From contig JAKOQZ010000011.1 in NCBI GenBank assembly GCA_029778105.1, positions 1 to 55,476 on the forward strand: a stretch of 55,476 nt of DNA, written 5' to 3'. Below are positions 32,553-52,977 of the stretch, in pieces. A model generated the notes under the pieces. That model saw only the letters and a program-made list of their open reading frames with translations, had not been told where the DNA came from and ran no database searches. The position numbers were made by a program, and so were the translations under genes. Every line of letters starts with the position of its first letter. Within the stretch, counting starts at the first letter, position 1. The stretch is from Pseudomonadota bacterium (GTDB lineage Bacteria > Pseudomonadota > Alphaproteobacteria > Micropepsales > Micropepsaceae).

Positions 32553-33749
<1,197 letters not shown>

Positions 33750-33753
33750 GACG

Positions 33754-35699: not shown

Positions 35700-35710
35700 A
35701 TCCTCAGACC

Positions 35711-36988
35711 TCAGCCCTGCGCCCCGGACCCGGCGCGCTCGACATCGGTCAGCACTTCGTCGCCTTCCTTGATCTCGCCTTCGAGAATCTCGGTGGTGAC
35801 GCCATCGGTGACGCCGATCTTGACCTTGCGCTCGACCGGCTGGCCGTCATCGCCCTTCACGAACACGCGGCCGGCCGAAGGATCGCGGGGCGCGTTGGCG
35901 GCGGCGGCGTCGGCCGCGTTGCTTTCGGCTGTCGCCTCTTTCATCGCGACCGACTGCGGCACGAAGCGCAACGCGGCATTGGGCACGAGCAGCGCGGATT
36001 CCACGGTCTTCACCGTGACTTCGGCAGTGGCTGTCATGCCGGGTTTCAGCAGGCCGCTTTCGTTATTCACGCTGAGCTCGCCCTGATAGACCACGACGCC
36101 CTGCGAAGAGGCCGTCGTCTCCGACTTCTTGGGCGCGTTGCGCATTGAGCGGATCTGGGCCTCGAATGTGCGGTTGGGGAAGGCGTCGACGGTGAAATTG
36201 GCGCTCTGGCCCTCCTGCACCTGGCCGACATCGGCCTCGTCGATATCGGCGAGCAGTTCGAGCTTGTTGATGTCCGATGCCAGCGTGAACAGAACCGGCG
36301 TCTGGAACGAGGCCGCGACGGTCTGACCCTCTTCGACGCTGCGATAGAGAACGATGCCGTCGATCGGCGCGCGAATGACCGCCTTGCTGATGTCGCTGAC
36401 CGCGACCTGGAGATTGGCTTCCTGAATGGCGACCTGCGCTTTGGCGACTTCCAGCGAGGCGGCGGCGCGGTCGAAAGTCGACTGGGCGGTATCGAGATCC
36501 TGCTGCGAGACGTTGCGGCTCTTGGCCAGATCGCGCACCCGCGACAGGCGGCGCTGCGCATCGGACATCGCGGCCTCGGCTTCCTTGACGCCGGCTTTGG
36601 CGGCGGCGAGCTGGGCCTCGGTCTGCACACGGCGGGCTTCCAGCTGGGTCGTGTCGATCTGGGCGAGCACGTCGCCCTTCTTCACCGCCGAGTTGAAATC
36701 GACCTTCACCTCGACGACACGGCCGGAAACCTCGGCGCCGACATCGACCTGATCGACCGGCTGCAACGTGCCGGTGGCAGTGACCTTGACCGATAGCGGG
36801 CCGCGCTTCACCGCTTCGGCTTTATAGCCGACGGGACCGCCGTCGCCGCCGGAGAACACCATCACAAGGATCGCCAGAATGGCGACCGCGCCGCCCAGCC
36901 AGATGAACGCCTTCTTTCGGCCGGACATCTTCTTCTTGCCGACGCCAAGCGTCTTCTCGATGCCTTTCGGCGCAGTCATGTCGTTCAT
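35711..36988 (-). CDS. MacA-like periplasmic adaptor (membrane fusion protein)
   Basis: N-terminal TM segment, ATGTLQP..QVDVGAEVSG, IRAPIDG, GQTVAASFQTP and LKPGMTA motifs. Confidence 0.92.
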   Translation of the reverse strand: MNDMTAPKGIEKTLGVGKKKMSGRKKAFIWLGGAVAILAILVMVFSGGDGGPVGYKAEAVKRGPLSVKVTATGTLQPVDQVDVGAEVSGRVVEVKVDFNSAVKKGDVLAQIDTTQLEARRVQTEAQLAAAKAGVKEAEAAMSDAQRRLSRVRDLAKSRNVSQQDLDTAQSTFDRAAASLEVAKAQVAIQEANLQVAVSDISKAVIRAPIDGIVLYRSVEEGQTVAASFQTPVLFTLASDINKLELLADIDEADVGQVQEGQSANFTVDAFPNRTFEAQIRSMRNAPKKSETTASSQGVVVYQGELSVNNESGLLKPGMTATAEVTVKTVESALLVPNAALRFVPQSVAMKEATAESNAADAAAANAPRDPSAGRVFVKGDDGQPVERKVKIGVTDGVTTEILEGEIKEGDEVLTDVERAGSGAQG

Positions 36989-37092: not shown

Positions 37093-38265
37093 TCAGGTCT
37101 GAGCCCGATAAGGGTCGGCTGCGTCGCGCAGGCCATCGCCAAGGAAATTGAACGCGAGCACGGTGAGCACCACCGGAATCACAGGCAGAAGCAGCCAGGG
37201 CGTGACCGACAGCGCGGCGTAGCTTTGGGCGGCATTGAGCAGGGAACCCCAGCTGACCTGCGGATCGCGGATGCCCAGTCCGAGGAACGAGAGCGCGGTC
37301 TCGCCGAGAATCATCGCCGGAATCGCCAGCGTCACGCTGGCGATGAGATGGCTGGAAAAATTGGGCAGCAGGTGGCGGAAGAGCACACGTCGCGGTTTTG
37401 CGCCCATCAGCACCGCGGCTGCAGCGTAATCTTCCTCGCGCAGCTGCATCACCTTGGCGCGTACGCCGAGCGCGAGGCCCGGCCAGTCGAGCAGGCCGAG
37501 AATGACGACGAGACCGCAGAAAACCAGAATGGGCGGCCAGTCGGCCGGGATGGCTGCGGAGAGAGCGAGCCACAGCGGAAGTTCCGGCATGGCGCGCAGC
37601 AATTCGACGAGCCGTAGGATCAGCCAGTCGGTCCAGCCGCCGAGATAGCCCGCCAGGCCGCCGAAGAGGACGCCCAAAACAAAGCTGATCGCGACGCCGA
37701 CGAGACCCACGGTCAGGGAGATCCGCGCGCCGTAGATCACCCGGCTGAAGACGTCGCGTCCGACCGTGTCGGTGCCGAAGAGAAAGAGGGTGCCGCCCTC
37801 GGCGGCGCAGAAGAGGCGCGTGCGGGCTTCGACAAGGCCGAGCAGGCGATACGGTTCGCCCTCGCAGAACCAGCGCAATTTCTGTGGCCGGGCGCGGTCT
37901 TCAGTATAGACGCGCCGGAAGGCTTCCAGGTCCACCGTCATGGCGGTCGGATAGGCGAACGGCGCTGTGAGGCCTTTCTCGCCCCAGATGCGTGCCAGCT
38001 GAGGGGGGTGGCTGATGGCGTCGGGGAAGCGCTGGTCGCGACCATAGGGCGCGATGAACTCGGCGAAGGGCACGATCACCAGATACATCAGCGCCAGCAG
38101 CCAGAAGGCGGCATAGGCCAGCCGCCGCCGCCGGAAACGCCGCCAGAACTGGCCGAAGGGCGAGCGCGCGTCGCCTGCGGCCGGCGGCAGCGCCGGCGGC
38201 GGAAAGGGTCGCTCGTCCACCACATGAGGCGGATCGCCGTCACGCAGGGGCCGCGCGCCGCTCAT
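37093..38265 (-). CDS. Opp/Dpp-type ABC permease (OppC-like)
   Basis: FGTDTVGRDVFSR..YGARISL, HLLPN, ETALSFLGLG and FNFLGDGLRDAADP motifs. Confidence 0.92.
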   Translation of the reverse strand: MSGARPLRDGDPPHVVDERPFPPPALPPAAGDARSPFGQFWRRFRRRRLAYAAFWLLALMYLVIVPFAEFIAPYGRDQRFPDAISHPPQLARIWGEKGLTAPFAYPTAMTVDLEAFRRVYTEDRARPQKLRWFCEGEPYRLLGLVEARTRLFCAAEGGTLFLFGTDTVGRDVFSRVIYGARISLTVGLVGVAISFVLGVLFGGLAGYLGGWTDWLILRLVELLRAMPELPLWLALSAAIPADWPPILVFCGLVVILGLLDWPGLALGVRAKVMQLREEDYAAAAVLMGAKPRRVLFRHLLPNFSSHLIASVTLAIPAMILGETALSFLGLGIRDPQVSWGSLLNAAQSYAALSVTPWLLLPVIPVVLTVLAFNFLGDGLRDAADPYRAQT

Positions 38266-39287
38266 GACTTTGCCCCCTTGCCCAGCCGCACGCGCGGGTC
38301 GAGCCAGGCGAGGATCAGGTCGGAAACCAGCATGCCGGCAAAGGTGAGGGCCGCGGTAAAGGTGAGGATGAAGGCGGCGAGGAAGGTGTCCTGTCCGCGC
38401 AGGGCGGCGAGCAGGACCGGGCCCACGGTCTGTAGATTGAGGACGACCGAGACGATCACCGATCCCGAAACCAGGCTGGGCAGAAGATTGCCGATATCGG
38501 CGACGAAGGGCGCGAAAGCGAGCCGGAGCGGATAGCGCGTCATCAGCCGTGTTTCGGAGATTCCGCGCGCCCGGGCGGCGGCGACATAGGGGCGGTTCAC
38601 CTCGTCGAGCAGATTGGCGCGCAGGCGGCGGATCATGATGCCGGCGGAACCCAGTGCGATGACGAGCGACGGGATCGCCAGATGCGCAGCGATGGAGGCG
38701 AGCTTCTCGCCCGACATCGGCGCGCCCTCGAAGCGCGGGTCCATGAGGCCGCCGATGGAGAGGCCGAACCAGGCCTGTCCGGTGACGAGCAGGACGAGCG
38801 CGAGCAGGAAGCTCGGGATCGCCAGACCGAGATAGGACAGCGTGGTCGCGCTGGTATCAAAGAGGCCGCCGGGTCGCCGCGCCGAGATGAGGCCGATGGG
38901 GAAGGCGATCAGATAGACAAGAAAGACCGTCGCGACATTCAGCAGCGCGGTGAGGCCGATGCGATCGCCGAGCACGTCGCCCACCGGCTTGTTGTAGAGA
39001 AACGACCAGCCCCAGTTGCCTTGCAGCAATCCATCGAACCCGTGCGGTCCGGGCATCAACCCCGCCCAGATGGCGTAACGGGCAAGGAAGGGCTCGTCGA
39101 AACTGAACTCGTCGCGCAGGAAGGCGATGCGCGCGGCCCCGGCGCCCTCGCCCTGGGCGACGAGTTCCTGCATTTCGTTGGAGAGGTAATCGCCGGGCGG
39201 CAATTCCACGACGGCGAAAATGAGCAGGCTGGCCGCAAGAAGCGCGGGGATGATCGCCAGAAGCCTCCAGACCGTATAGCGCAGCAT
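38262..39287 (-). CDS. Opp/Dpp-type ABC permease (OppB-like)
   Basis: LPPGD, P.FLLAL, HL.IP, R.NLLDE...PYV.AARARG and SDL.LAWLDPRVR motifs. Confidence 0.92.
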   Translation of the reverse strand: MLRYTVWRLLAIIPALLAASLLIFAVVELPPGDYLSNEMQELVAQGEGAGAARIAFLRDEFSFDEPFLARYAIWAGLMPGPHGFDGLLQGNWGWSFLYNKPVGDVLGDRIGLTALLNVATVFLVYLIAFPIGLISARRPGGLFDTSATTLSYLGLAIPSFLLALVLLVTGQAWFGLSIGGLMDPRFEGAPMSGEKLASIAAHLAIPSLVIALGSAGIMIRRLRANLLDEVNRPYVAAARARGISETRLMTRYPLRLAFAPFVADIGNLLPSLVSGSVIVSVVLNLQTVGPVLLAALRGQDTFLAAFILTFTAALTFAGMLVSDLILAWLDPRVRLGKGAKS

Positions 39288-39294
39288 CAGGGCG

Positions 39295-41187
39295 TCACCG
39301 GTCGAGCCACAGCGCATCGAGGCGATAGATGCCGAACTGGGCGCCGGGGTCCCAGCCGAAGATGCCGGCTTGCGGCACGTTGCGCAGCGCGTTGGAAACA
39401 ACGACCGGCTGGAGGACGCCCGAAACGATGCCGATGGAGAATTGCTGATCGGCGTGAATGTCGAGCATCTCGCGCCAGATCGCGGCGCGCGCGGCGTCGT
39501 CGGTGGCGAGAGTCCAGTCCTTGTAGAGCTGAAGCAGGCGCTGGCCTTCCGGCAGGTCGACGGCTTCGCCCGATGCGCCCTTCGTGGCGATGTACTGACC
39601 CCAGCGCGGCCAGGCGAGGAATTCCTGATGAACCGGCGCCAGTTCGTCGGGGCTGGCGGACGGCGTCGGCACCCCGTTCTCGAAACCGGACCACACCGTC
39701 ATATGGCTTTCGCCGGCATAGGCGCGGTTGCGCAGCACGCTGCGCTCGTAAGGCCGCACAATCATGCCGATTCCCGCCTTGCGCCATGTCGGCGCGATGA
39801 GCTCGAGGATCGCCGCCTCCTCGCCGCTCTCGCCGGAGGTTTCGACGACGATCTGCAGCCCGCGTCCATCGGGCAGGAGGCGGATGCCGCGCGCGTCGCG
39901 CTGGGTGAGGCCGATCTCGTCGAGCAGGGCATTGGCTTTGGCGAGATCGAAGATTGCGTCGCGCACCGTGCGGGCGGGGTCGTAGAGCGGACTTTCCTTC
40001 AGCGCCGTGTTGTTACCGGCCGTCGCGAGCCCGAAGAACAGCGAGCGGTTGATATCGTCGCGGTCGATGGCGGCCGAAAGCGCACGGCGAAAACGTGCGT
40101 CGCGCATCAGGTTGCGCCAGACCGGATCGGCGGTGGTGAGGTTCGGGAAGAGCGCGACCTGCGCTCCTTTGGTGACGGGATAGAGCTTCACCTTGAAGCC
40201 GCCGCCGTTCTCGGCCGCCTTCAGCGCGCCGGCATCCGAGAAGGCGAGACCGCGGAACTGCAAATCGGCGTCGCCTGCCGCCGTCTTGGCTGCGATGAGC
40301 CCCGGTTCGACGATCGTCACGTCGATCCCGTCGAGATAGGGCAGCTGCATGCCGTAAGGGTCGAGGCGATGGAAATAGGGATTGCGCCGGAAGTGGAACA
40401 CCGGGCCGCCGCCGGGCTCGATGACGAATGGCTGCAGGCTGGGCATTTCCGAGTTGTCGTTATCGTACATCGAGTCGCGCCGGTTATGCAGCGCGGCCCA
40501 GCCCTTCACCTTCTCCGCCGCGACCAGCGCATCGATGTCGGCCTTGTCGCCGTACTTGATGTGGAAGCGCTTCAGATAGTGCGCGGGACGATAGATATAG
40601 GGCTCGCGCGCCTGTGCGAGCAGCGCGAGAAAGCGTGGGTTTGGCGTGGGCCACTCATAGCGGACCGTCGTCTCGTCGATGACGGTGAAGACGGGCGGAA
40701 CGCCATCGACGGTCAGTTCTTCAGGAATGCCGGCAGGCGTCAGCTCGGGATTGCTGGCGATATCTTCCCAGTAATAGCGGAAGTCCTCTGAGGTGAACGG
40801 CGCGCCGTCGGACCATTTGTGGCCCTTGCGCAGATGCATCGTGAAGATGCGATTGTCCGTGATCTCGATAGCTTTGAGGATGTCGGGCCTGATCTGCAGA
40901 TTCTCGTCGTAGCCGACGAGACGGGCATATCCCCAGACATTGAGCAGCCGGACGTCCTTGTCCTTGGGCAACAGCGTGCGCAGGCGTCCGCCGCTCTTGC
41001 CGGTGGTGCGCCCCAGCGTCTCGAAGCCGCCGACGAGTGGCTCCTGCGGCACACGCCCGGCTGCAGCCGGCAGCGCGCCGGCAGCGACATCTGCCGCAAG
41101 CGATGGCGGATCGATGGGCGTGGGCGTCGCGGCGGCGGCCTGCCCCAGCAGCGCGAGCGCGAAGACCGCTTTAAGCAGCTTGCGCAT
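39295..41187 (-). CDS. Family-5 ABC substrate-binding protein
   Basis: Signal peptide, LRKGHKWSDGAPFT.ED, RNPYFH..D..G.QLPY.D and D.RFRRALS.AIDR motifs. Confidence 0.9.
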   Translation of the reverse strand: MRKLLKAVFALALLGQAAAATPTPIDPPSLAADVAAGALPAAAGRVPQEPLVGGFETLGRTTGKSGGRLRTLLPKDKDVRLLNVWGYARLVGYDENLQIRPDILKAIEITDNRIFTMHLRKGHKWSDGAPFTSEDFRYYWEDIASNPELTPAGIPEELTVDGVPPVFTVIDETTVRYEWPTPNPRFLALLAQAREPYIYRPAHYLKRFHIKYGDKADIDALVAAEKVKGWAALHNRRDSMYDNDNSEMPSLQPFVIEPGGGPVFHFRRNPYFHRLDPYGMQLPYLDGIDVTIVEPGLIAAKTAAGDADLQFRGLAFSDAGALKAAENGGGFKVKLYPVTKGAQVALFPNLTTADPVWRNLMRDARFRRALSAAIDRDDINRSLFFGLATAGNNTALKESPLYDPARTVRDAIFDLAKANALLDEIGLTQRDARGIRLLPDGRGLQIVVETSGESGEEAAILELIAPTWRKAGIGMIVRPYERSVLRNRAYAGESHMTVWSGFENGVPTPSASPDELAPVHQEFLAWPRWGQYIATKGASGEAVDLPEGQRLLQLYKDWTLATDDAARAAIWREMLDIHADQQFSIGIVSGVLQPVVVSNALRNVPQAGIFGWDPGAQFGIYRLDALWLDR

Positions 41188-42988
41188 CGCGGCCTCCAAT
41201 GGCGGCGCGGTGACCGGGCGCGATTTCGACGAGCGGGGCCTGGTCATCGCCCATATCGCCCGCCGCGCGGGCGGCGACGGCTGCGAGGTCGAGGCGGTTC
41301 ATACGGTCGGCATCCGGCGCGGCGGCGATGAGGGCGCGCGTGTAAGGGTGAACCGCGCGCTCGAACAGCTCGGCGGCGGGCGCTTCCTCCACGATGCGGC
41401 CGCGGCGCATCACCGCGACGCGGTCGGCGACATGTTCGACGACCGCAAGGTCGTGGCTGATGAAGAGATAGGCAAAGCCCAGCTGCGTCTTGAGATCGGC
41501 GAGCAGATTGAGAATCTGCGCCTGCACCGACACGTCGAGCGCCGAGGTCGGCTCGTCGAGGATGAGGAGATCGGGACGCAGCGCGAGGGCGCGGGCGATG
41601 GCGATGCGCTGGCGCTGACCGCCGGAGAAGGCGGGCGGAAAGCGGTCGAGCGCGCTGCGCGGCAGCCCGACGAGATCGACCAGCTCGCGCGCGCGGACAT
41701 CGCGCCCCTTGCGGCCGGCGAGGCCGTGAATGGCGAAAGGTTCGGTCAACGTCTCGCGGATGCTCATGCGCGGGTTGAGCGCCGCATAAGGGTCCTGGAA
41801 GACATAGGCGACGCGGCGGCGGAAGCGTGAGAGCGCGCTGCCGGCGATGGTTTTCAGATCGTGCGCCGCGCCTTTGGCGTGAAAGACGACGCGGCCGGTA
41901 TCGGGTTGGTCGGCACGCATCAGCAGGCGTGCGAGGGTGGACTTGCCCGAACCGGACTCGCCCACCAGACCGACGCTTTCGCCGTGGCCGATGGCGAGCG
42001 AGACCCGGTCGAGGGCCAGCGCCGGCTCGCCGCCGCGTCGTGCGCCGAAGGTCTTTGATACGTCGATCGCCTCGATCAGTTTGGCGCCGGGGGCGGCATC
42101 CTCACGCTTGCGCGCGGGGCGGGCCGCATAGGCGGTTGCGGCGTCGTCGCCCGCTTCGCCGCCGATGACGGCCAGCCGCGACGTGCGGCGATGCAGGCTG
42201 GGGTTCGCGCCCTTCAGCGCCTGAAAATAGGGATGCCGGCTCTCGGCGAAGACGGCGTCGGCAGGGCCACGCTCCATCACCCGGCCGCGATAGAGCACGA
42301 CGAGATCGTCAGCCAGCGCGGCGACGAGGCCGAGATCATGGGTGATGAAGAGGACGGAGAGGCCGAGGTCGTCTTTCAGCCTTTGCAGCAGGGCGAGAAC
42401 CTGCGCTTGGATGGTGACATCGAGCGCGGTGGTGGGTTCGTCGGCGATCAGGACGGACGGACGCGCGGCGAGCGCGGCGGCGATCATCGCGCGCTGGCGA
42501 AGGCCGCCGGAGAGCTCGAAAGGATAGGCGTCGAAGCCGCGAACCGGGTCGGGAAAGCCGGTCAGGCGCAACATCTCGGTGGCGGCAGCGCGCGCGGCGC
42601 GTTTCGAGACGTTGTCATGCGCGCGCGCGGCCTCGGCGATCTGGCTGCCGACGGTGTGGACCGGCGAGAAGGCCGAGAGAGGTTCCTGAAAGACGAGACC
42701 GATGCGCCCGCCGCGCACAGCGCGGAAGGCGGGGTCGGCAGGGTTCAGCTTCACAAGATCGAGGGCGGGACCCTTGCCGTCATCAAGCAGGATGGAGCCG
42801 CCGAGTTTTGCGCCCTGGGGCAGCAGGCCCATGGCGGCGAGAGCGAGCGTGCTCTTGCCCGAACCGGATTCGCCGACCAGCGCCGTTATGCGCCCCCGGC
42901 CCGCATCGAAGGTGACGCCGTTCAGCGCCTGCACCGGCGGGCGGCCGGCGAAGCTGAGCGTGACATCTCGGAACGAAAGAACCGGCAT
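41171..42988 (-). CDS. Fused double ABC ATPase (OppD/F type)
   Basis: Two GESGSGKST motifs, [16 protein letters not shown] and DEPT.ALDV. Confidence 0.93.
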
Positions 42989-42997
42989 GAGAAGACC

Positions 42998-44134
42998 TTA
43001 GCCGCCCGCTGCGATCTCTGCGAGACGCCGTGCGGCGGTCTCAGCGCCGTTCATGAGCAGGGCGCCGGGGTCGGTGGCCGGCGCGGCCAGCGCGGCTCTT
43101 GCGGCGGCGGCCAGCGTGTCGGGCGTGAGCCTGTCTTCGGGGAGATGCGTGACCAGACCGAGCGCGGCGAACCGCGCGGCGCGCAGCCTTTGCTCCGGTT
43201 CGCCGGGTGGGGCGAAGGGAATGATGAGGGTGGGTGTGCCGGCGGCGACTGTTTCGGCCATCGTGTTGTAGCCGCCGCGCGAGATGGAGAGCCGGGCGGC
43301 GGCGATGCGGGCGGGGAGATCGCTGGCGGCGTGAAGGATTTCGCCGCCGAATTGGCGGGTTATCGCGGCGCTGAGGGCCTCGTGCAGGCCCTCCGGCGCG
43401 TGCTGGCCGGTGATGAATGTCCACGGCTCTTCGGCCAGAAATCCGGATTTCCAGGCCCTGACGGCGGCGGTCAGAAGCGGTGCCGCATCGCCGCCGCCGC
43501 CGGCTGACACGATGACGCCGCGGCGTGCCGGTTGCGGGACGGGCGTGGCGTGCGAGGCCACATAGCCGGTGAGCGTGGCGGGCACGGGGATCTCGCCCGG
43601 CCAGACGTCGTTCAGGGGCGTCACGGCGGGATCGCCGTGGATGAGGACGGCGTCGTAGTGCCGGACGAGGCGATCGGCGCATTCTGCCAGGCGCTTTTCG
43701 TCGGCGGGCGGGGTGGGCAGATCGCGGATGGAGGCGACGATCCTGGCGCCGGCGGCGTGTGCGGCCTCGATCAGGGGGAGGATTTCGCGGGCGAGTTTGC
43801 GCCGGCCGAAGGGGAAGGTCTCGGTGACGACGACGTCCGGGGTGGCTTGGCTGAGGGTTTCCGCGACGATTTCGGCGCGGCGGGCCCAGATGTCCTCGGT
43901 GACGGGCCAGCCCCCGGCCGTGACGAGGCGGGCATAGGTGGTGTCTTCGGCGCGGATCGCAGGCAGGGCGACGAGCGTGACGGCGGGATCGAGACGGCCG
44001 GGAACGGGCGTATTTCCGCTGAGAATCGTGGCCGAACCGCCCGCCGCGACGACGGCATTGGCGAGGGCCGCGGTGCGGGTGAAGTGCCCGACGCCCCATA
44101 GATGGTTCACATGGAAAAGGACGCGGAGGGTCAT
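42998..44134 (-). CDS. Predicted GT-B glycosyltransferase (COG4671 / GT28-C-like)
   Basis: HLWGVGH..R, ETFPFGRR, SIRD, VSAGGG, S.GGYNT..E and EQ..RA motifs. Confidence 0.8.
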   Translation of the reverse strand: MTLRVLFHVNHLWGVGHFTRTAALANAVVAAGGSATILSGNTPVPGRLDPAVTLVALPAIRAEDTTYARLVTAGGWPVTEDIWARRAEIVAETLSQATPDVVVTETFPFGRRKLAREILPLIEAAHAAGARIVASIRDLPTPPADEKRLAECADRLVRHYDAVLIHGDPAVTPLNDVWPGEIPVPATLTGYVASHATPVPQPARRGVIVSAGGGGDAAPLLTAAVRAWKSGFLAEEPWTFITGQHAPEGLHEALSAAITRQFGGEILHAASDLPARIAAARLSISRGGYNTMAETVAAGTPTLIIPFAPPGEPEQRLRAARFAALGLVTHLPEDRLTPDTLAAAARAALAAPATDPGALLMNGAETAARRLAEIAAGG

Positions 44135-44718
44135 GCGCGGGCCGGGAGGGCCAGATTGGCGGTTTCCAGCCTCAAATGCCCGCTTTCCCACACGAAAATA
44201 TGGGCGGCGCGCCATTTCAGTTTGAAGGGCGGCTTGTCGCGCATGTCCCAGCCGAGCGCCAGCGACAGCGCGGCGCGGATGATGCCCTTATGGGTGACGC
44301 AGACGGCGAAATCGGGGCCGTTGCGTTCGAGATTTGCGAAGAACCGGCAGAGCCTGTCCTGTGCCGCCCGGGGGCTTTCGCCGCCCGGGGGGCGGAAATC
44401 GAGCCCGGCCAGACCGCGTGCCGCGATGCGGTGGCTGAGGGGGGTGGTGACGGCGCGGGTGAGCCCTTCCCAGGCCCCCCAGTTGGTTTCGATGAGCAGC
44501 GGCTCGATCTGCGGTTCGTGCCCCAGCAGGCGCGCCGTTTCCACGGCGCGGGTGAGGGGCGAGGAAAACCATGTGCCGCCCCGAAGCTCGGGCGGCGGCG
44601 CGAGGCGGGCGAGTTCGGCCCGGCCCTCGGGCGAGAGGGGTGTGTCGGCGTGACCCTGGATGCGGCCCTCGGCGTTCCAGAAGGTCGCGCCGTGCCGGAT
44701 GAGGGCGATGCGGGTCAT
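44131..44718 (-). CDS. Histidine phosphatase (phosphoglycerate mutase family)
   Basis: LIRHG.T.WN..GRIQG, SSPL.RA.ETA, E..WG.WEG, PGGES and THKG motifs. Confidence 0.9.
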   Translation of the reverse strand: MTRIALIRHGATFWNAEGRIQGHADTPLSPEGRAELARLAPPPELRGGTWFSSPLTRAVETARLLGHEPQIEPLLIETNWGAWEGLTRAVTTPLSHRIAARGLAGLDFRPPGGESPRAAQDRLCRFFANLERNGPDFAVCVTHKGIIRAALSLALGWDMRDKPPFKLKWRAAHIFVWESGHLRLETANLALPARA

Positions 44719-45806
44719 GGCGCGAGGGGGGCGAGGATGGCCCGAAGGCGTGCCGCCGCGTGGGCGATGTCGCGCTCGCCATGGACGAATTCACCCGCCA
44801 CCTCGCCCATGATGTCGCGGGTCTGACGGTTCAGCAGCAGGATGCGCAGCGACTGGGCCAGCGCCTCGGCATCGCCGGCCGGCGAAAGGAGCCCGCCGCG
44901 GCCCTGTTCCACCACGGCCGGCACGCCGGCCGTCTGGCAGGCGACGACGGGAAGGCCGCTGGCCTGGGCTTCCAGATAGGAGAGGCCATAGGCCTCTTTC
45001 AGACCCGGCCAGAGATAGAGGTCGGCGCGGGCGTAGAGGGCGGGCATGGCCTCGGGCGGGACGGCGCCCATGAAGGTGACGCGGTCCTTGGGGAAATTGG
45101 CGAAAGCGGCCCTGGCCTCGGCTTCGCCGGCCCCGCCGCCCGCGACGACGTAGAACCATTTGAGGTCGGCGATGCGGGCGAGGGCCGAGGCGATGAGCGG
45201 GAAGTTCGCCAGCTTCTTGCCCGGCCGCAGCATGGCGACGGAGAGGATGAGCGGGGTCAGGCCGCTCTTGCGCGCCAGCCCCCGGAAGCGCGCGGCGTCG
45301 ATGAAGGGCGGCAGGCGGTGCAGGCGTTCCGGCGCGACGACCTGCTGCAGCATGGCGGCGTCGTGGTCGGTCATGGCGATGACGGCGTCGGCGGATTCGA
45401 GGGCGAATTTTGCTGCAGCATAGGGCGCAGCAAAATCGCCGATCGCGCGCTTGGGCGCGTGGCTGGCCTCGACGATCACATAGGGGATGCCGAGCGCCTT
45501 CGCGACGTGAGGCCCGAGATGATCGGGCGATTTGTAGTAGCTGAGATAGGTGAGCCAGAGGGCGGGCGGATCGGCGCGGTGGCGCGCGATGAGCGCGGAA
45601 ATCTCGGGCTTCGCCGCTTCTGCGATGGCCGATTGCTGCGCCGCATCGCCCTTGCCCTCATAGGCGCGCAGGGGCGAAGCGGGTTCGGCGCGATAGCCGA
45701 TGGTTTCAAGCGCCCGGGCGAGGAGGCCGGTCATGGCGCGGTCGCCCGATGGCGGCGCGCCGGGGACGAGCGGGTTCATCGGGGCATAGAGAAGGACGCG
45801 CTTCAT
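44715..45806 (-). CDS. GT4 glycosyltransferase
   Basis: PSGDR.M, TY.SYYK.PD and EAYGLSYLEAQASGLPVV (EX7E) motifs. Confidence 0.88.
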   Translation of the reverse strand: MKRVLLYAPMNPLVPGAPPSGDRAMTGLLARALETIGYRAEPASPLRAYEGKGDAAQQSAIAEAAKPEISALIARHRADPPALWLTYLSYYKSPDHLGPHVAKALGIPYVIVEASHAPKRAIGDFAAPYAAAKFALESADAVIAMTDHDAAMLQQVVAPERLHRLPPFIDAARFRGLARKSGLTPLILSVAMLRPGKKLANFPLIASALARIADLKWFYVVAGGGAGEAEARAAFANFPKDRVTFMGAVPPEAMPALYARADLYLWPGLKEAYGLSYLEAQASGLPVVACQTAGVPAVVEQGRGGLLSPAGDAEALAQSLRILLLNRQTRDIMGEVAGEFVHGERDIAHAAARLRAILAPLAP

Positions 45807-47035
45807 GCTGCACCCGCAGCCCCGTCCATGCTGCGCAGCATGGACGCGATGGCGTCGGCGGTGGGCGCGGCGGCGAAATCGGCGGCGACGCGGGCGCGCC
45901 CGGCCCGGCCCATGGCGGCGCGCGTGGCGGGTTCGGCGATCAGCGTTTCGAGATGGGCGGCGAGCGCGGCGATCCGGCCCGGCGGGGCGAGCAGTCCGTT
46001 GAGGCCGGGCGTCACCAGTTCGCCGACGCCGCCGACCCCTGTGGAGAGAACGGGCAGGCCCTGCGCCTGCGCCTCGACCAGCACGTTGGGCAGACCGTCG
46101 CGGTCGCCGTCGGCGGCGATCTCGGGCGTCAGGGCGAAGAGATCGGCGGCCTGCATCGCGGCGCGGACCTCGTCTTCGGAGAGGCTGCCGCGCCAGTGTG
46201 TGCGCCCGGCGATCCCGAGGCTTTCGGCCTCGCGCTTCAGCGCATCGCGCAGCGGCCCGCCGCCGATATGAACAAAGCGCCAGTTGAGCGTCGCCGGCAG
46301 CGCGGCGAGCGCGCGCAGCAGGGCCGGATAGCCCTTTTTCTCCACCGCCCGCCCGACCGAAAGAACGATCACGGGGTCGGACGGGTCGCCGCCGTCGCGC
46401 GGCGGGCGCGGCGGGGCTTCGGGCCAGTGTGCGAGATCGAGCCCGTGGCGGCCGAGATGTGGCGGTTTTCCGGGCGAAAGAGCGGCAAGGCGGGCGTGGC
46501 CGTCGGCGGTGCAGCAGGTGGTGAAGCGGGCGGCGGCGAGCTTGGCGGCGAGATCCCAGTCGGGCGTCGTCCAGATGTCGCGGGCATGGGCGCTGACCGC
46601 GAAGGGCAGGCCGGTGAGGGCGGCGGCGTAGCGGGCGACGGACGCCGGCGTATGGATGAAATGGGCGTAGAGCGCCCTGGCGCCGGGGGGCAGTTCGGCG
46701 GCGAGCACCAGGGCCTGGCCGAAGCGGCGGATGCGGTTGCGGGTGCGGTCGCGCGACCAGTCGGCGCGGAAGAGCGCCTTTGCGGCGGCATAGCCGGGTG
46801 TCCAGCGCAGCTTGCGCCAGGCGCGGATCACGCGGCCCGGCTCGTTATGCAGATATTCCGGCAGGTACGCGACGGCGGCCTTCACGCGGCCATGGACGGG
46901 ATGGGTTTTCGTGTCGGTCGGGTGGCGCAGCGACCAGAGGGAGAGCGCGAGGCCGCGGGCCTCCAGCGCCTCCAGCTCGCGCGCGATGAAGGTTTCCGAC
47001 AGGCGCGGCCAGCCCTTGAGGACGACCGCGATCAT
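45803..47035 (-). CDS. GT4 glycosyltransferase (WcaL-like)
   Basis: GWPRLSETFI..E, HF.H.PA, VGRAVEKKG and DRDGLPNVLVEA motifs. Confidence 0.88.
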   Translation of the reverse strand: MIAVVLKGWPRLSETFIARELEALEARGLALSLWSLRHPTDTKTHPVHGRVKAAVAYLPEYLHNEPGRVIRAWRKLRWTPGYAAAKALFRADWSRDRTRNRIRRFGQALVLAAELPPGARALYAHFIHTPASVARYAAALTGLPFAVSAHARDIWTTPDWDLAAKLAAARFTTCCTADGHARLAALSPGKPPHLGRHGLDLAHWPEAPPRPPRDGGDPSDPVIVLSVGRAVEKKGYPALLRALAALPATLNWRFVHIGGGPLRDALKREAESLGIAGRTHWRGSLSEDEVRAAMQAADLFALTPEIAADGDRDGLPNVLVEAQAQGLPVLSTGVGGVGELVTPGLNGLLAPPGRIAALAAHLETLIAEPATRAAMGRAGRARVAADFAAAPTADAIASMLRSMDGAAGAA

Positions 47036-48219
47036 CGGCCGAGCCAGAGCGTGGCGAGGCGCACCACCTCGTCGAGCCCGTCCATCATGCCGGGCGTGAA
47101 GGCGGCGGAGGGCCGGGGCTGGTGCATGACGGCGCGGATCGCATCGGCCATCACCGCGATGTCGCGCGACCCGCCGCGTTCGGCGGGGTCTTCCAGCATG
47201 CGGGCAAGGCCCAGCTCCTCGGCCCGGGCCGCCCTGATCCATTGTTCGCGGCGGGGCTTTTCGCGCGGCACGATGACGGCGGGTTTGTCGAAGGAGAGGA
47301 TCTCGCAGAACGTGTTGTAGCCGCCCATGGCGACGACGCCCCCGGCGCGCTCGACGATGCGCTCCATCTCGGCGTCGAAGACGGCGCAGGTGACCTCGGG
47401 CAGCGCGGCGGCGCGGGCGAGAAAGCGCTCCTGCGCGGCGGGGTCCATGAAGGGGCCGAGCATGACGACGGCGGGCGGCAGATCGCCGAAATGTTCATAG
47501 GCCGACAGCGCCCAGTCGATCAGGCCCTCGCCGTCGCCGCCGCCGCCCGTGGTGACGAGCACATAAGGATCGGCAGGCAGGGCGAAACGGGGCTGGCCGC
47601 GCCCGATGGCGGCGGTGTCGCGGCGCAGATAGCCGGTATAGCGGGTGCGCGCGTCGAGGCCGGGCGGCAAAGTGAGGCCGGCGAGGGGATCGAAGATGTC
47701 CCGGACGCCGTAGATCCAGATCTCGTCGTAGAGATCGGCGAGGGCGGGGCCGACATTCTTGCGGGCCCATTCCTGATCGAGCGCCTCGGCGTCGTCGAGC
47801 ACGTCGCGCAGGCCCAGCACCAGACGCGCGCCCTGGCTCTTGAGCATGCCGAGGGTCTGGGTGAGCTCGCCCCTGAGCCCCAGCGGTTCCTTGTCCACGA
47901 TCACCAGATCGGGGCGGAAGACGCGGGCGGTCTCTTCGATGATCTCGGCGCGCAGGCGGAAGGCGTCGGCGGTTTCGACCGTGAGCTTGGTCGGCGTGTA
48001 GGCGCCGTCGCGCAGCTTGATGACGCCGGGCACGCGGACGAAATCGACCCGTTCGGGAAACTCGAAGGCGCCGATGATGGGCGAGCCGGAGATGATGAGC
48101 GTGGTGAGGTCGCCCCGCGCAGCGGTCAGCGCGCCGCCCAGCGCCCGGCAGCGCCGCAAATGGCCGAGACCGAAACTGTCATGACTGTAGAGCAGGACGC
48201 GGGCGGGCGGGGGCGTCAA
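47032..48219 (-). CDS. Predicted GT-B glycosyltransferase (COG4671)
   Basis: LLYSHDSFGLGHLRR, VDKEPLG, GLRDVLD, TTGGGGDG, MGGYNTFCEIL and PR.EQ.IRA motifs; TTG start. Confidence 0.82.
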   Translation of the reverse strand: MTPPPARVLLYSHDSFGLGHLRRCRALGGALTAARGDLTTLIISGSPIIGAFEFPERVDFVRVPGVIKLRDGAYTPTKLTVETADAFRLRAEIIEETARVFRPDLVIVDKEPLGLRGELTQTLGMLKSQGARLVLGLRDVLDDAEALDQEWARKNVGPALADLYDEIWIYGVRDIFDPLAGLTLPPGLDARTRYTGYLRRDTAAIGRGQPRFALPADPYVLVTTGGGGDGEGLIDWALSAYEHFGDLPPAVVMLGPFMDPAAQERFLARAAALPEVTCAVFDAEMERIVERAGGVVAMGGYNTFCEILSFDKPAVIVPREKPRREQWIRAARAEELGLARMLEDPAERGGSRDIAVMADAIRAVMHQPRPSAAFTPGMMDGLDEVVRLATLWLGR

Positions 48220-48321
48220 ACGGGCGCTCCGGGCAATGGCGGGACGGGCGGAGATTGCATGGCGGGGCCGGGGTTGTCAGCCTCTTGAATGGGGGACGGC
48301 GATCGCGGCCTGCCAGGGCAT

Positions 48322-48345
48322 GACAATCCCTGCGATGTGATTGTC
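48322..48345. promoter_or_regulatory. Inverted-repeat operator candidate in the divergent promoter region
   Basis: GACAATC-N10-GATTGTC, directly upstream of TTGCGT-N17-TAACCA (48351-48379). Confidence 0.5.
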
Positions 48346-48387
48346 GCGCCTTGCGTGTAGGGGCGGCGACCCCTAACCATCGGCGCG

Positions 48388-51018
48388 ATGGAGCGGCGGC
48401 TTTTCAGTTACATCTGGCGGCACAGCCTCGGCGAGCAGATCCGCGTGCTGGCGGTCATCGCCGCGTCGCTGCCCTTCTATTTCTTCGCGCTGAACCTGCC
48501 CAAGCTGATCGTCAACGGCCCCATTCAGGGCGACGGGTTCGAGAACGGTGCGAGCCGGACCTATCTGACGGTGCCGCTGCCGGACTGGCTGGGCGGCGGG
48601 CATCTGTTCGGCGGGTTTTCGCTGGACCAGATGAGCGCGCTGTTCGCGCTGTCGTTCACGTTTCTGGGCCTCGTCTGCATCAACGGGCTGTTCAAATACC
48701 GCATCAACGTGATGAAGGGGCAGATGGGCGAACGCCTGCTGCGCCGGTTGCGTTACGAGCTGGTGGACCGGGTGCTGCGCTTCTATCCGGCGCGGCTGAA
48801 ACGCACGAAACCGGCGGAAGTCGCGTCCATGGTGAAGGACGAGGTGGAGCCGTTGGGCGGCTTCGTCGGCGAGGCCTTCGCCACGCCGGTCTATCTGGGC
48901 GGACAGGCTGCGACGGCGGTGCTGTTCATCATGCTGCAGAATCCGCTTCTGGGCCTGGTGGCGGTGGGCGTCGTTTCGATCCAGGCTTTTCTGATCCCTT
49001 ATCTGCGCAAGCCCATCCTCGCGTTGGGACGGCAGCGTCAGCTGACGGCGCGCGAATTGTCGGGCCGGGTGGGCGAGATCGTCGACGCCGCCGCCGACAT
49101 TCAGGCGAACGACACCTCGAACTGGGAGCGCGCCGATATCACGCGGCGGCTGGGGCGGATCTACGACATCCGGTTCGAGATCTATCGCCGCAAGTTCTTC
49201 GTAAAGTTCCTGAACAACTTCCTCGCGCAGGTGACGCCGTTCTTCTTCTATCTGGTGGGCGGATATTACGTTCTCAAAGGCGAGCTTTCGATCGGCCAGC
49301 TGGTGGCGGTGATCGCCGCCTACAAAGACCTGCCGGGGCCGATCAAGGAGCTGCTGGACTGGTATCTGGAGAAGCAGGACGCGCAGATCAAATACGAGCA
49401 GGTGATCGAACAGTTCGGCGCCGAGAAGCTGATCGATCCGGCGCTGCACGAACCCGCCGATCCCGCGCCGCTGACCACCGGGATCGAGGTGCGCGAGGCG
49501 ACGGTCGCCGACGATACCGGCGCGCGGCTGCTGGACGCGGTGAGCTTCACCATTCCCGCCGGCGCGCATGTGGCGCTGGCCGGGCCGCCGGGCGGCGGCA
49601 AGGAGACGGCGGCGGCGCTGATCGCGCGGCAGGCGAACGCGCGCTCGGGCCATGTGCTGATCGACGGGCAGTCGATCGAGACGCTGCCGCAGGCGGCGAC
49701 CGGGCGGCGCATCGCCTATGTCGGGCAGGACGCCTATCTGTTCGGCGCGAGCCTGAAGGACAATCTGCTCTATGGCCTGAGGAACCAGCCGCGCCGCCCC
49801 GCCGAGCGCCACGGCCCGGCCGCCGCGCTGGCCCGGGCGCGCCATCTGGAAGACGAGCGCGCGGGCAACGCGCCCTATGACGCGGACGCCGACTGGGTGG
49901 ACTATGCCGCGCTGGGGATCGACGACGCGCGCTCCGTGGATGCGAGCCTGATGCGCTTCATCGCGCTGAGCGGGCTTGAGGACGACGTGTTCCGCTTCGG
50001 ACTGCAGGGCCGCTTCGACCCCGACGACGCGCCGGTGGTGGCGAGCCGCCTGCTGCAGGCGCGCGCGCTGTTCAAGGCGCGCGAGATGAGCGGCGATATC
50101 GACATCGTCGAGCCGTTCGATGCGGCGCTCTATAACAACCAGGCGACGATCGGCGAGAACCTGCTGTTCGGCGTGGCGGTGGGGCCGGCCTATCAGCCGC
50201 ATAATCTGGCGCGCAACCGCACGGTTTCGAGCCTGCTGGACGAAACCGGCCTTGGCCGTCCGCTGTTCCAGCTGGGCCGCGGCATCGCCGAGACGATGGT
50301 GGAGATCTTCCGCGGCCTGCCCGCCGACCACCCGTTCTTCGCGCAGTTCAGCTTCATCGCGGCGGCGGACCTGCCCTACTTCGAAGCGCTGCTGGCGCGG
50401 CTGGACGCGGGCCAGCCCTCGACCGCCGAGCAACGGGCGCGGATGCTGGGCCTCGCCTTCGACTATTCCGAGGCGCGCCATCGTCTGGGCCTGCTGGACG
50501 ACAGGCTGCGCTCCATGCTGCTGGTGGTGCGGCGGCTGTTCAACGAGCGGCTGCCGGCGCATGAGCGCTCGAAAATCGCGTTCTACGATGCGGCCGAATA
50601 CAACGAGGCGGCGTCGGTGGAGGACAACATCCTGTTCGGCCGCATCGTCTATGGCGCGCCGGACGCGCAGGCGCGCATCCAGCACATCCTGCACGAGGTG
50701 ATCGGCGAGCTGGGCCTTGAGGACGACATCGCGCGCATCGGGCTCGGCTTTCATGCCGGTGCGGCCGGCAAGCGGCTGACGCCGTCGCAGCGCCAGCGGC
50801 TGGCGCTGGCGCGCGCGCTGGTGAAGAATCCCGACATGCTGGTCGTCAACGGCGCGCTGGCCGTGCTGGACCCGCATGCGCAGGGCGAGATCCTGAAGCG
50901 CGTGATCGCGGCGCGCGCCGGCAAGGGCTTGGTGTGGACGCTGGCGCCCGGCCAGGACAGTTCGCCGTTCGACAGCGTGATCGCCTTCGAACATGGCCGC
51001 ATCGCAGGCGCGGCATGA
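48388..51018 (+). CDS. ABC-exporter-like protein (TMD + degenerate NBD with large internal insertion)
   Basis: Exporter-type TMD (GERLLRRLRYEL), Walker A GPPGGGKE, Q-loop IAYVGQD, signature LTPSQRQRLALARAL, Walker B MLVVNG. Confidence 0.85.
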   Translation: MERRLFSYIWRHSLGEQIRVLAVIAASLPFYFFALNLPKLIVNGPIQGDGFENGASRTYLTVPLPDWLGGGHLFGGFSLDQMSALFALSFTFLGLVCINGLFKYRINVMKGQMGERLLRRLRYELVDRVLRFYPARLKRTKPAEVASMVKDEVEPLGGFVGEAFATPVYLGGQAATAVLFIMLQNPLLGLVAVGVVSIQAFLIPYLRKPILALGRQRQLTARELSGRVGEIVDAAADIQANDTSNWERADITRRLGRIYDIRFEIYRRKFFVKFLNNFLAQVTPFFFYLVGGYYVLKGELSIGQLVAVIAAYKDLPGPIKELLDWYLEKQDAQIKYEQVIEQFGAEKLIDPALHEPADPAPLTTGIEVREATVADDTGARLLDAVSFTIPAGAHVALAGPPGGGKETAAALIARQANARSGHVLIDGQSIETLPQAATGRRIAYVGQDAYLFGASLKDNLLYGLRNQPRRPAERHGPAAALARARHLEDERAGNAPYDADADWVDYAALGIDDARSVDASLMRFIALSGLEDDVFRFGLQGRFDPDDAPVVASRLLQARALFKAREMSGDIDIVEPFDAALYNNQATIGENLLFGVAVGPAYQPHNLARNRTVSSLLDETGLGRPLFQLGRGIAETMVEIFRGLPADHPFFAQFSFIAAADLPYFEALLARLDAGQPSTAEQRARMLGLAFDYSEARHRLGLLDDRLRSMLLVVRRLFNERLPAHERSKIAFYDAAEYNEAASVEDNILFGRIVYGAPDAQARIQHILHEVIGELGLEDDIARIGLGFHAGAAGKRLTPSQRQRLALARALVKNPDMLVVNGALAVLDPHAQGEILKRVIAARAGKGLVWTLAPGQDSSPFDSVIAFEHGRIAGAA

Positions 51019-51028
51019 GGAGCGTGTT

Positions 51029-51502
51029 ATGAGCATCATCGACGAGGTCGAGGCGCTGCGGCGCATTCCCTATTTCGCGACGATGGATTCGGCCAAGCTG
51101 AAGCTGCTGGCCTTCGCCAGCCACCGCCTGCAGCTGCCGGTGGGCGGCGTGCTGTGCCGCGAGGGCGAGCCGGGCGATGCGGCCTATATCCTGCTGGACG
51201 GCGAGGCCGAGGTGATGGTGCGCACCGCAGAGGGCCACGATGTCGTGGTCGCCAAGGTGCCGAAGAATGCGTTCATCGGCGAGATCGCGGTGCTGCGCAA
51301 CGTGCCGCGCACCGCGACGGTGGTGGCCTCTTCGCCCATCGTCGCGCTGAAGGTGGGCAAGGACGCGTTCTTCCAGCTGCTGCGCGACGTGCCGCAATTC
51401 GCCTTTGAGGTGATGCGCGAACTGGCCGAGCGGCTGGAGGATACGACCGGGCGTCTGCGCGAGGCGCAGGGGCGGCTGGACGCGGCGGGACTGGGGAACT
51501 GA
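51029..51502 (+). CDS. Stand-alone cyclic-nucleotide-binding domain protein
   Basis: EGEPGD.AYILLDG and phosphate-binding cassette GEIAVL..VPRTATV; no HTH domain; GAGGAG RBS. Confidence 0.9.
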   Translation: MSIIDEVEALRRIPYFATMDSAKLKLLAFASHRLQLPVGGVLCREGEPGDAAYILLDGEAEVMVRTAEGHDVVVAKVPKNAFIGEIAVLRNVPRTATVVASSPIVALKVGKDAFFQLLRDVPQFAFEVMRELAERLEDTTGRLREAQGRLDAAGLGN

Positions 51503-51507: not shown

Positions 51508-52167
51508 ATGGGCCCGCTCACGGTCTGGGGTGAGGGGCGCGGGTTTCGCGTCGTCTGGCTGCTGGAGGAGCTGGGGCTTGCCTATCGCCTGCGCGATGTC
51601 GATCTGAGGCCGGGGGCGGACAGCGACCCGGCGTTCCTGGCCGTCAATCCGGGCGGGTTCATTCCGGCGCTGCAGGATGGCGAGACGATCCTGGTGGAGT
51701 CGATCGCGATCCTGGAATACCTGCTCGCGCGCTATGGCCGGGGCTCGGCGCTGGCGCCGGCGGCGGAGGATGAGAGCTTTGCGCTCTACCAGCAGTTCCT
51801 GCATCTGGGCGAAGCGGGGCTGGCGGGCACGATGTTCTTCGCCGCGATCCCGCCGCGGATCGCGCCGGACGGACAGGGCGACAACTGGACGTCGCGCTGG
51901 GCGGCGACGTTGTTCGAAGGCCGCCGCCGTCTTGTGGCGCGGCAACTGGCGCGCGCGCCCTATATGGCGGGCGACGCCTTCACCGCCGCCGACATCTCGG
52001 TCACCTATGCGCTGGATTTCGCGCGCCGTGTGGGCGGCGTGGCGATGAGCGCCGACGAGGCCGCGTATGTCGCGCGCACGAGCGGGCGGGACGGCTACAG
52101 GCGTGCGATGCGAAGCTGCCACGCGACAAGGGGCTGGGTGGAATCGCTGGGCGAAGGACCGTTCTAG
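51508..52167 (+). CDS. Glutathione S-transferase family protein
   Basis: RVVWLLEELG, NPGG.IPAL.DG, ESIAILEYL and GDAFTAADI motifs. Confidence 0.9.
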   Translation: MGPLTVWGEGRGFRVVWLLEELGLAYRLRDVDLRPGADSDPAFLAVNPGGFIPALQDGETILVESIAILEYLLARYGRGSALAPAAEDESFALYQQFLHLGEAGLAGTMFFAAIPPRIAPDGQGDNWTSRWAATLFEGRRRLVARQLARAPYMAGDAFTAADISVTYALDFARRVGGVAMSADEAAYVARTSGRDGYRRAMRSCHATRGWVESLGEGPF

Positions 52168-52934: not shown

Positions 52935-52977
52935 GGCGCCGCAGCTCCTCCCCTCAGGAGCTGCGGCGCCTTTTTTT
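52935..52977 (+). terminator. Rho-independent terminator
   Basis: GGCGCCGCAGCTCCT-cccctc-AGGAGCTGCGGCGCC followed by TTTTTTT. Confidence 0.9.

Follow-up and report, generated by a model that had tools for sequence, protein, structure and literature searches.

A conserved glycosyltransferase cluster with an ATPase-degenerate ABC exporter-fold protein and its own importer in a Micropepsaceae bacterium

Nine genes for four glycosyltransferases (GTs), a phosphatase and an importer, lying opposite an ABC exporter-fold protein (hereafter the ABC) and a stand-alone cyclic nucleotide (cNMP)-binding protein, raise the question of what the enzymes make, how the product leaves the cytoplasm and what the importer takes up. 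Such a locus lies at positions 37,093 to 51,502 of a 55,476-nucleotide stretch (the window) of contig JAKOQZ010000011.1, from a member of the Micropepsaceae, Alphaproteobacteria (GenBank assembly GCA_029778105.1). With moderate confidence, we propose that the locus makes a short envelope glycan, which would be exported without ATP hydrolysis under cNMP control and then salvaged.

Co-inheritance and published genetics

The GTs, the ABC, the cNMP protein and the importer form one co-inherited, conserved system. Orthologues of the first GT (E ≤ 1e-140), the full-length ABC (E < 1e-190) and the solute-binding protein (SBP) of the importer (E < 1e-160) were present in the same 22 of 300 genomes drawn evenly from the phylum; the thresholds were chosen after viewing the score gaps, and related genomes among the 22 are not independent. 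Weak GT matches (G038, G046, G187), a weak SBP-only match (G260), partial ABC-only matches (G078, G213, G242, G251) and the partial ABC match of G046 were left out. Co-occurrence persisted where the three genes lie far apart (G054, G182, G236). Among 30 relatives, a full ABC orthologue was present in 18, the first GT in the same 18 and the SBP in 17 of them. The cNMP gene follows the ABC gene in all 18 of the fetched loci and GT genes adjoin the ABC gene in 17; G002 has no GTs beside the ABC, but carries GTs about 30 kb away.

A further set comprised 80 GTDB loci kept from at least 599 matches, 39 of them with full 10-kb flanks. In these 39, the partners of the first GT were a GT4 enzyme (GT4a, 39 loci), another GT4 (GT4b, 38), a second COG4671-type GT (38), the importer ATPase (34), the cNMP protein (30), the phosphatase (29), the ABC (28) and the SBP (28); the importer counts are lowered by the 10-kb flank limit. 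The usual order in the 80 loci is methyltransferase, cNMP gene and ABC gene, divergent from GT, GT4, GT4, phosphatase, GT, deacetylase, small membrane protein and importer. Cluster loci also occur in Beta- and Gammaproteobacteria. The co-conservation check called for in the preliminary description of the locus, made from the letters and their open reading frames (ORFs), was run in this way and came out in favour of a system.

Tblastn located orthologues on Sinorhizobium meliloti pSymB, Rhizobium etli p42e, a Ruegeria megaplasmid and an Azospirillum plasmid, and published coordinates tied those of S. meliloti to SMb21252 and SMb21260-70. Identity to the S. meliloti proteins was 37-53% over the cluster, 44-53% for the ABC of the SMb21269 type and 46-52% for the importer (SMb21260-63). 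The locus had been put forward as uncharacterised; this could not be maintained, since orthologues have published genetics as PPP, redA/redB and opt. The S. meliloti cluster SMb21252-71, with redA and redB, was named PPP ('phazolicin-protecting polysaccharide') by Travin et al. (2023, PMC10128002), whose Data Set S1 gives the label COG4671 to SMb21264 and SMb21266. In the transposon sequencing (Tn-seq) reported there (0.2 µM phazolicin), insertions were depleted in SMb21252 (log2 fold change -4.9), SMb21264 (-4.8), SMb21265 (-4.8), SMb21266 (-3.8) and the ABC gene SMb21269 (-4.0), and also in the genes of a deacetylase (-3.7), a nucleotide-sugar dehydrogenase (-4.3) and a PF14099 lyase (-4.7); FkbM methyltransferase insertions fell into the same group of about 4-5 log2. 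Insertions in the importer genes SMb21260-63 (-0.14 to +0.53) and in a DUF3095 gene were neutral. Phazolicin was inhibitory at eightfold lower concentrations in two GT mutants, and pyocyanin sensitivity of the Agrobacterium orthologues is cited in the same paper.

The Agrobacterium cluster, Atu2577-Atu2592, was described as an 'uncharacterised glycan' cluster by Gilmore and Cava (2022, PMC9790009); for its orthology we rely on what both papers state. Loss of three GTs, a UDP-GlcNAc dehydrogenase and the ABC exporter gave a fitter yejABEF mutant, and GTs, dehydrogenase and ABC behaved as one group (ratios 4.8-7.3), that is, as one genetic unit; according to these authors, the role of the polymer is still to be established. 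In R. leguminosarum, pRL110047 and pRL110056 (ABC and dehydrogenase) were needed in nodules and loss of pRL110053-54 (optAD) was advantageous on roots (Wheatley et al., bioRxiv 2020.05.07.082560), the mapping of the pRL11 genes being supported by gene order. SMb21252, SMb21265 and SMb21269 are among the symbiosis genes of Flores-Tinoco (2020, PMC7268258). For the published orthologues, the phenotypes of the GTs and of the ABC coincide, and that of the importer differs. The cluster has been found independently by three Tn-seq studies, on antibiotic tolerance, cell-wall recycling and nodule life. A literature search that covered few subscription papers returned no report of a cluster product or transport assay, and no paper on the motif loss of the ABC, its link to a cNMP sensor or the co-inheritance of the importer.

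The cluster is thus already flagged in print, and the window represents a minimal variant of it. Ten of the 11 window genes and a metallo-beta-lactamase (MBL)-fold hydrolase gene have orthologues in the PPP cluster, the degenerate ABC and the cNMP protein being common to both; however, the window differs in gene order and has a histidine phosphatase in addition, and its genus is without the deacetylase, the lyase and a close dehydrogenase. A deacetylase of the SMb21253 type, present in 35 of the 39 full loci, was found by profile search in none of four family genomes, two near-closed genus genomes included (control G026, 6e-99). Methyltransf_17 (17 of 39 loci), like the deacetylase, was not found in the window's genome or the near-closed genus genomes, nor the small membrane protein (41 of 80) in its own genome or the genus loci. 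The PF14099 lyase was found in none of five genomes searched (a positive control matched in Bacteroides), the best nucleotide-sugar dehydrogenase in the genus was only 28-30% identical, and neither FkbM nor DUF3095 turned up in the window's own 89%-complete genome. Because these genes were not found, the window reads, by gene content, as a minimal version whose 11 genes show the core; it is not a full PPP member, as genes required in S. meliloti were tested for and not found. Antibiotic hypersensitivity on loss is known only for orthologues of the window's genes. The R. etli opt-red and R. leguminosarum pRL110046-56 clusters share with the window the importer, redA, redB, the second COG4671-type GT, the ABC and the cNMP gene in one run, but there genes for an adenylate cyclase and a nucleotide-sugar dehydrogenase lie next to the run; the R. 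etli stretch examined has no GT4b and no phosphatase, and its importer is labelled as an oligopeptide transporter.

The ABC, its cNMP-binding partner and the other components

The ABC (48388-51018, plus strand; SMb21269 orthologue) matches ABC_membrane and partially ABC_tran in Pfam. Its predicted model (pLDDT 83.5) retrieved only ABC exporters with Foldseek (TM287/288, TmrAB, P-glycoprotein). It shares the membrane domain and the nucleotide-binding domain (NBD) fold with canonical exporters such as MsbA and TM287, but not their catalytic motif set. Among 70 ABC homologues, a GK[ST] Walker A was present in three, a DE Walker B in two, SGGQ in none and both Walker motifs in none; the switch column held His in 19. 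The ATPase motif loss is family-wide, as the term 'pseudo-exporter' in the preliminary description implied. In contrast, the importer ATPase of the same locus (41171-42988, minus strand) keeps intact Walker A, signature and Walker B motifs in both of its NBDs. The NBD of the ABC is interrupted by an insertion of about 300 residues, positions 480-790 of the protein, with no sequence match in the PDB. The motif xxENxL[FY]G, which we take to mark the helical subdomain of an NBD, occurs three times, and repeats 2 and 3 align with 31.5% identity over 73 residues (E 8e-6).

The membrane domain of the ABC is rich in invariant Arg/Lys, R217, R262, K269 and K273 among them. Fifteen of its positions, nine of them Arg/Lys, are identical in 20 of the 22 sequences of the system (one exception is diverged and one is a fragment). 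The same positions are kept in three of three unlinked cNMP fusions with an eroded NBD, and are lost in four of four paralogues. These paralogues (L115:7473-10025, L116:7635-10589, L122:6948-9704, L131:8453-11296) have the same inserted degenerate NBD and a diverged membrane domain. Three of the four lie beside MBL hydrolases or adenylate cyclases, with no match to the cluster GTs nearby, and they are possibly a separate cAMP-signalling module. A quick ABC tree, which gave long-branch warnings, was used solely to separate them.

A distant subtype of the GT cluster (L120:1-10806, L121:3028-11466, L134), in which no importer was seen, carries a fully canonical ABC exporter among its GT genes. 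One genome of this subtype has a heparinase-like lyase, an APH-type kinase and a deacetylase, and another a UDP-sugar dehydrogenase and an epimerase; a related set is present in Nitrospirota. The motif loss, the kept membrane residues and the canonical exporter of the distant subtype favour the view of the ABC as a ligand-handling membrane protein that would no longer hydrolyse ATP. The SbmA/BacA transporters have an ABC exporter-type membrane domain and operate without ATP; as generally described, they set an example of ATP-independent transport by this fold. They differ in being peptide importers without an NBD, while the window ABC keeps an enlarged degenerate NBD and a cNMP partner. The ABC of S. 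meliloti 1021 is split into two overlapping frames (L015:36685-39436), with SMb21269 as the C-terminal part; the split may be real or a sequence error.

The cNMP protein (51029-51502, plus strand; SMb21270 orthologue, 50% identity) keeps its phosphate-binding cassette. G84 is conserved in 71, E85 in 70 and R94 in 72 of 72 sequences; the pocket appears intact and binding of a cyclic nucleotide is predicted. A cNMP domain is fused to the ABC in Azospirillum lipoferum, in L039, in three copies in G162 and, by sequence, in L069, L086 and L094; the fusions of L039 (15388-18951), L069 and L094 also have a GGDEF-like tail. Since such fusions occur, docking of the cNMP protein on the ABC was likely beforehand. 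The predicted complex scored 0.58 against 0.00 for the best control, with contacts agreeing by at least 91% across runs and a partner pLDDT of at least 84. In the calibration of this score, the mark was passed by 116 of the 157 solved complexes and by two of the 215 mismatches, and at 0.60 or below there were only 18 solved complexes plus both passing mismatches; a value of 0.58 was therefore rated as a weak prediction of docking. The tie between the two proteins supposed at the outset is supported by the fusions and weakly by the complex prediction. In the PPP Tn-seq the cNMP gene showed the opposite sign to the GTs (+1.1, +1.5 and +3.1; adjusted p 0.26 at best, 5 TA sites; PMC10128002), a non-significant trend that hints at an inhibitory role.

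A candidate cyclic-nucleotide phosphodiesterase is the MBL-fold hydrolase encoded at 30335-31198 (plus strand), outside the coordinates first described and 6 kb from the importer; it is 43% identical to the MBL of the S. meliloti cluster. In five of five relatives checked, no more than about 30 kb separate this MBL gene from the ABC. It was present in 14 of the 22 system genomes, within 1.5 kb of the ABC in five, and is also frequent in genomes without the cluster. Adenylate cyclases were found in 7 of the 80 loci and in the rhizobial clusters; none was found in the annotated part of the window, which runs from about 30 kb rightwards. Of the linked cyclases or MBL phosphodiesterases that the preliminary description named for checking, an MBL hydrolase was found in this stretch and a cyclase was not.

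The four GTs are encoded on the minus strand. They are the redA (SMb21264) orthologue, a COG4671-type GT-B enzyme (47032-48219; 49% identity, GT1-like fold, invariant His20), the redB (SMb21265) orthologue GT4a (45803-47035; 52% identity, GT4 by Pfam), the SMb21252 orthologue GT4b (44715-45806; 41% identity, Ex7E motif) and the second COG4671-type GT, the SMb21266 orthologue (42998-44134; 37% identity). The two COG4671-type GTs are 29% identical to each other. No hydrophobic segment was detected in the four GTs, the phosphatase or the cNMP protein, consistent with soluble GTs. The fold of the first GT is nearest to GT1 natural-product GTs (CalG1, Z 27.8, root mean square deviation 3.6, 339 aligned; GtfA, 26.8; MurG, 23.2), and the shared fold reveals no substrate. 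The best PDB sequence match of GT4a is a phosphatidylinositol mannoside mannosyltransferase. The nearest named solved relatives of GT4b include BshA, and its likeness to the NCBIfam models is weak (BshA, 69 bits vs. a cut-off of 274; MshA, 64 vs. 462; sucrose-phosphate synthase, 42 vs. 576).

The histidine phosphatase (44131-44718, minus strand; branch 1) retains all catalytic residues (R8, H9, R57, E77 and H143 invariant in 64 of 64 sequences). It is missing from 10 of the 39 full loci and from the rhizobial clusters examined, so the two-step GT4 and phosphatase logic initially suggested is not universal. As in the two-step pathways for sucrose, mannosylfructose, glucosylglycerol and mycothiol, a GT4 gene stands beside a phosphatase gene, and most cluster relatives have a deacetylase; however, the NCBIfam scores are far under the cut-offs and the locus carries three further GTs and two transport modules.

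Besides its ATPase, the importer comprises a family-5 SBP (39295-41187) with a signal-like N-terminal segment and two permeases, OppB-like (38262-39287) and OppC-like (37093-38265), assigned by Pfam and orthology; all are on the minus strand. The solved relatives of the SBP are headed by 5IPW, followed by the pectin-binding SPH1118 (E 2e-68) and an alpha-galactoside binder (E 3e-27), and solved peptide binders matched with E 2e-9 or worse. The best peptide or nickel family model was Opp4A (79.7 bits vs. a cut-off of 650). The stacking Trp594 of SPH1118 aligns with W612 of the window SBP, and this Trp is kept in 44 of 48 sequences. SPH1118 is itself annotated as a peptide binder, yet peptide mixtures were hardly bound in the reported assays (PMC9314435). 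A sugar is the likely ligand of the window SBP, in line with the original suggestion of a sugar-binding family-5 SBP and with its nearest characterised solved relatives; a polyuronate ligand is not supported.

Competing readings of the product

In the scheme that we propose, the four soluble GTs would work in the cytoplasm, where they likely assemble a short chain of sugars on a small acceptor. One GT4 may first add a sugar to a phosphorylated acceptor, which the phosphatase would then unmask (an MshA-like logic). The ATPase-degenerate ABC would likely hand the chain to the periplasm or envelope; retained there by the cell, the chain would have a protective effect. The cNMP protein, predicted to dock on the ABC, would likely throttle it, and the importer would likely salvage the product or its fragments. 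The product of the window's genus would be without the deacetylation and methylation that other versions of the cluster add. We infer the nature and size of the product, the transport by the ABC, the cNMP gating and the salvage. Depletion of mutants from a pooled library suggests a product retained by the cell rather than a signal that is released; an imported acceptor is made less likely by the neutral importer insertions; the joint requirement for a lyase and a dehydrogenase suggests that the glycan lies beyond the inner membrane; and four GT-B enzymes without a polymerase in the locus make a short chain likeliest.

This working mode is likened to periplasmic glucans. NdvA/NdvB (ChvA/ChvB) deliver a cytoplasm-made cyclic beta-1,2-glucan through an ABC exporter fold; the glucan acts in the envelope, with stress and symbiosis phenotypes. 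The locus differs in having no NdvB-type synthase and an ABC that scores 86.6 against a cut-off of 585 for the chvA model; its own features are four separate GT-B enzymes, the cNMP partner, the dedicated importer and an ABC without ATPase motifs. Nor does it resemble Wzx/Wzy or Wzm/Wzt loci, whose initiating transferase, polymerase or flippase and export protein are not among the 11 genes; no ORF cluster for an initiating transferase, acyltransferase, polymerase, flippase or export protein recurs in the 80 loci (unlinked genes not searched). The observation that the locus has no polymerase, flippase, initiator or glycosidase stands for the 11 genes by Pfam and NCBIfam, but does not extend to the S. 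meliloti cluster, which carries a polysaccharide lyase.

Several points weigh against this proposal. Having lost its catalytic motifs, the NBD cannot drive transport in the usual manner, and the ABC may move nothing, while the setting of its paralogues fits a signalling role. The MBL gene is present in only 14 of 22 genomes and was neutral in the phazolicin Tn-seq, where the effect of cNMP-gene insertions was not significant (PMC10128002). The top PDB match of the SBP, 5IPW, is labelled as a putative oligopeptide binder, and the key Arg57, Arg438 and Arg496 of SPH1118 are replaced in the window SBP. In work of Vos and colleagues from 2007, opt mutants were reportedly impaired in oligopeptide use. 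The polysaccharide itself is called a speculation by the authors who named PPP (PMC10128002). Searches of the window's genus did not find genes that are essential in S. meliloti, so the S. meliloti phenotype may not carry over to it.

The short envelope glycan has to be weighed against other products. The COG4671-type GTs match the C-terminal domain of GT28, the family of MurG, and, with the phosphatidylinositol mannoside enzyme as best match of GT4a, this could speak for a lipid-linked product (a glycolipid or a glycan on a lipid carrier) and an ABC acting as an ATP-independent flippase. The basic residues of the membrane domain would suit a phosphate headgroup, and a lipid anchor would explain a cell-autonomous phenotype. 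We nevertheless consider such a product unlikely, because no initiating transferase or acyltransferase recurs in the 80 loci, the GT fold is nearer to GT1 small-molecule enzymes than to MurG, and the co-inheritance of an importer that has a periplasmic binding protein is more in keeping with a soluble ligand. The chances are smaller again that the ABC transports nothing and activates the GTs as a membrane scaffold or cAMP-linked sensor, the product being a protective, mycothiol-like glycoside of the cytoplasm or the membrane side. The intact ATPase motif set is absent in 70 of 70 homologues, the paralogues have adenylate cyclase or MBL hydrolase genes as neighbours but no GT matches, GT4b has weak BshA/MshA scores alongside the frequent deacetylase, and pyocyanin sensitivity is cited for the Agrobacterium orthologues, all of which would agree with it. 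However, the membrane-domain residues are exact in the GT-associated copies and lost in the paralogues, the distant subtype has a canonical exporter, and the required S. meliloti lyase has a signal-like N-terminus.

The two readings offered in the preliminary description fared worse. The first, in which cells would secrete a small soluble osmolyte or signal into the medium, with cNMP controlling the release, and take it up again, now appears improbable: soluble GTs, a phosphatase and a co-inherited importer would suit it, as would the reduced osmotolerance that was reportedly seen in opt mutants (Vos and colleagues, 2007), and mechanosensitive-channel genes adjoin the cluster in Ruegeria and S. 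meliloti, but the strong depletion of mutants in pooled Tn-seq speaks against a shared product, importer loss is neutral or beneficial, and GT4b falls far short of the sucrose-phosphate synthase model. We give least credence, very little indeed, to an importer that takes in a peptide, other acceptor or toxin for glycosylation in the manner of CalG1 or OleD. The nearness of the first GT fold to natural-product and macrolide GTs and the annotation of the importer as an oligopeptide transporter point that way, as does the oligopeptide phenotype reported for opt mutants; but importer insertions are neutral and so do not reproduce the phenotype of the GTs, the dehydrogenase, lyase and deacetylase are co-required as for glycan building, and the SBP is far under all peptide and nickel models.

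A wider form of the envelope glycan proposal is possible but doubtful. It would make the product an unrecognised envelope oligosaccharide of many Proteobacteria, leaving through an ATP-free, ABC-fold channel gated by a docked cyclic nucleotide-binding protein and recaptured in a cycle by its own importer, with the window's genus showing the simplest, undecorated form. If true, ATP-independent, cNMP-gated exit of a glycan would be a new use of the ABC fold. A genetically required ABC without ATPase motifs, its cNMP link and an importer that is dispensable in the laboratory yet co-inherited lend themselves to concrete tests.

Layout of the window and neighbouring genes

The 11 ORFs lie at the coordinates first described, nine on the minus strand facing two on the plus strand. 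The five ATGA overlaps (47032-35, 45803-06, 44715-18, 44131-34 and 38262-65) are exact, and the short junctions also agree. With starts set at 41187 for the SBP and 51029 for the cNMP gene, the gaps are 9 bp between the second COG4671-type GT and the importer ATPase, 7 bp between SBP and permease and 10 bp between ABC and cNMP gene, and the ATPase and SBP genes overlap by 17 bp. Pfam agrees with the gene labels initially given for all 11 (in order GT28_C-type, GT4, GT4, His_Phos_1, GT28_C-type, double ABC_tran plus oligo_HPY, SBP_bac_5 and two BPD_transp_1, then ABC_membrane plus partial ABC_tran and cNMP_binding). Among the matches shown, NCBIfam cut-offs were unreached by the GTs, phosphatase, SBP, permeases, exporter-like ABC and cNMP protein. 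Contigs from independent sequencing runs bridge the GT and importer junctions (e.g. 42422-47314), so the gene block is not an assembly artefact. In four RNA-labelled runs contig cover was even, flanks included, and shows neither transcription nor operon structure.

The divergent intergenic region (48220-48387) measures 168 bp, against about 170 bp first estimated. No CRP-like palindrome was seen in it and a promoter scan returned 0 sites. A GTGA-N8/9-CTTGC element 5' of the ABC start (about 48336-48375, plus strand) was seen by eye in the window and six genus relatives, and may correspond to a promoter -35 element plus an upstream half-site. Regulation by Clr was considered for the S. meliloti cluster and rejected: the published Clr-activated polysaccharide cluster (nodP2-smb21248) adjoins these genes but excludes them. 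Synechocystis sll1722-26, reported as an exopolysaccharide cluster, is a putative homologue and was not used. RedA-like genes without the rest of the cluster occur on Azospirillum and Agrobacterium plasmids (L014:13974-15218, L135:19977-21188).

A co-oriented GST gene (51508-52167) follows the cNMP gene and was excluded from the cluster, being at that position in one of 18 relatives. Farther right are an Exodeoxyribonuclease III gene (52977-53792, minus strand) and two ORFs without a Pfam or NCBIfam match (53920-54390, plus; 54461-55081, minus). An Exodeoxyribonuclease III gene is likewise near the cNMP gene in 29 of the 80 distant loci, which probably reflects an old chromosomal position rather than a functional link. 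On the other side, a response-regulator-like ORF (29292-30302), seen by sequence, lies just upstream of the MBL gene. Directly downstream of the importer are MacA/MacB-like efflux genes (32553-36988, minus strand) for an adaptor, an ATPase and two permease-like ORFs, and a MacA-like adaptor adjoins the importer in 7 of the 18 relatives' loci.

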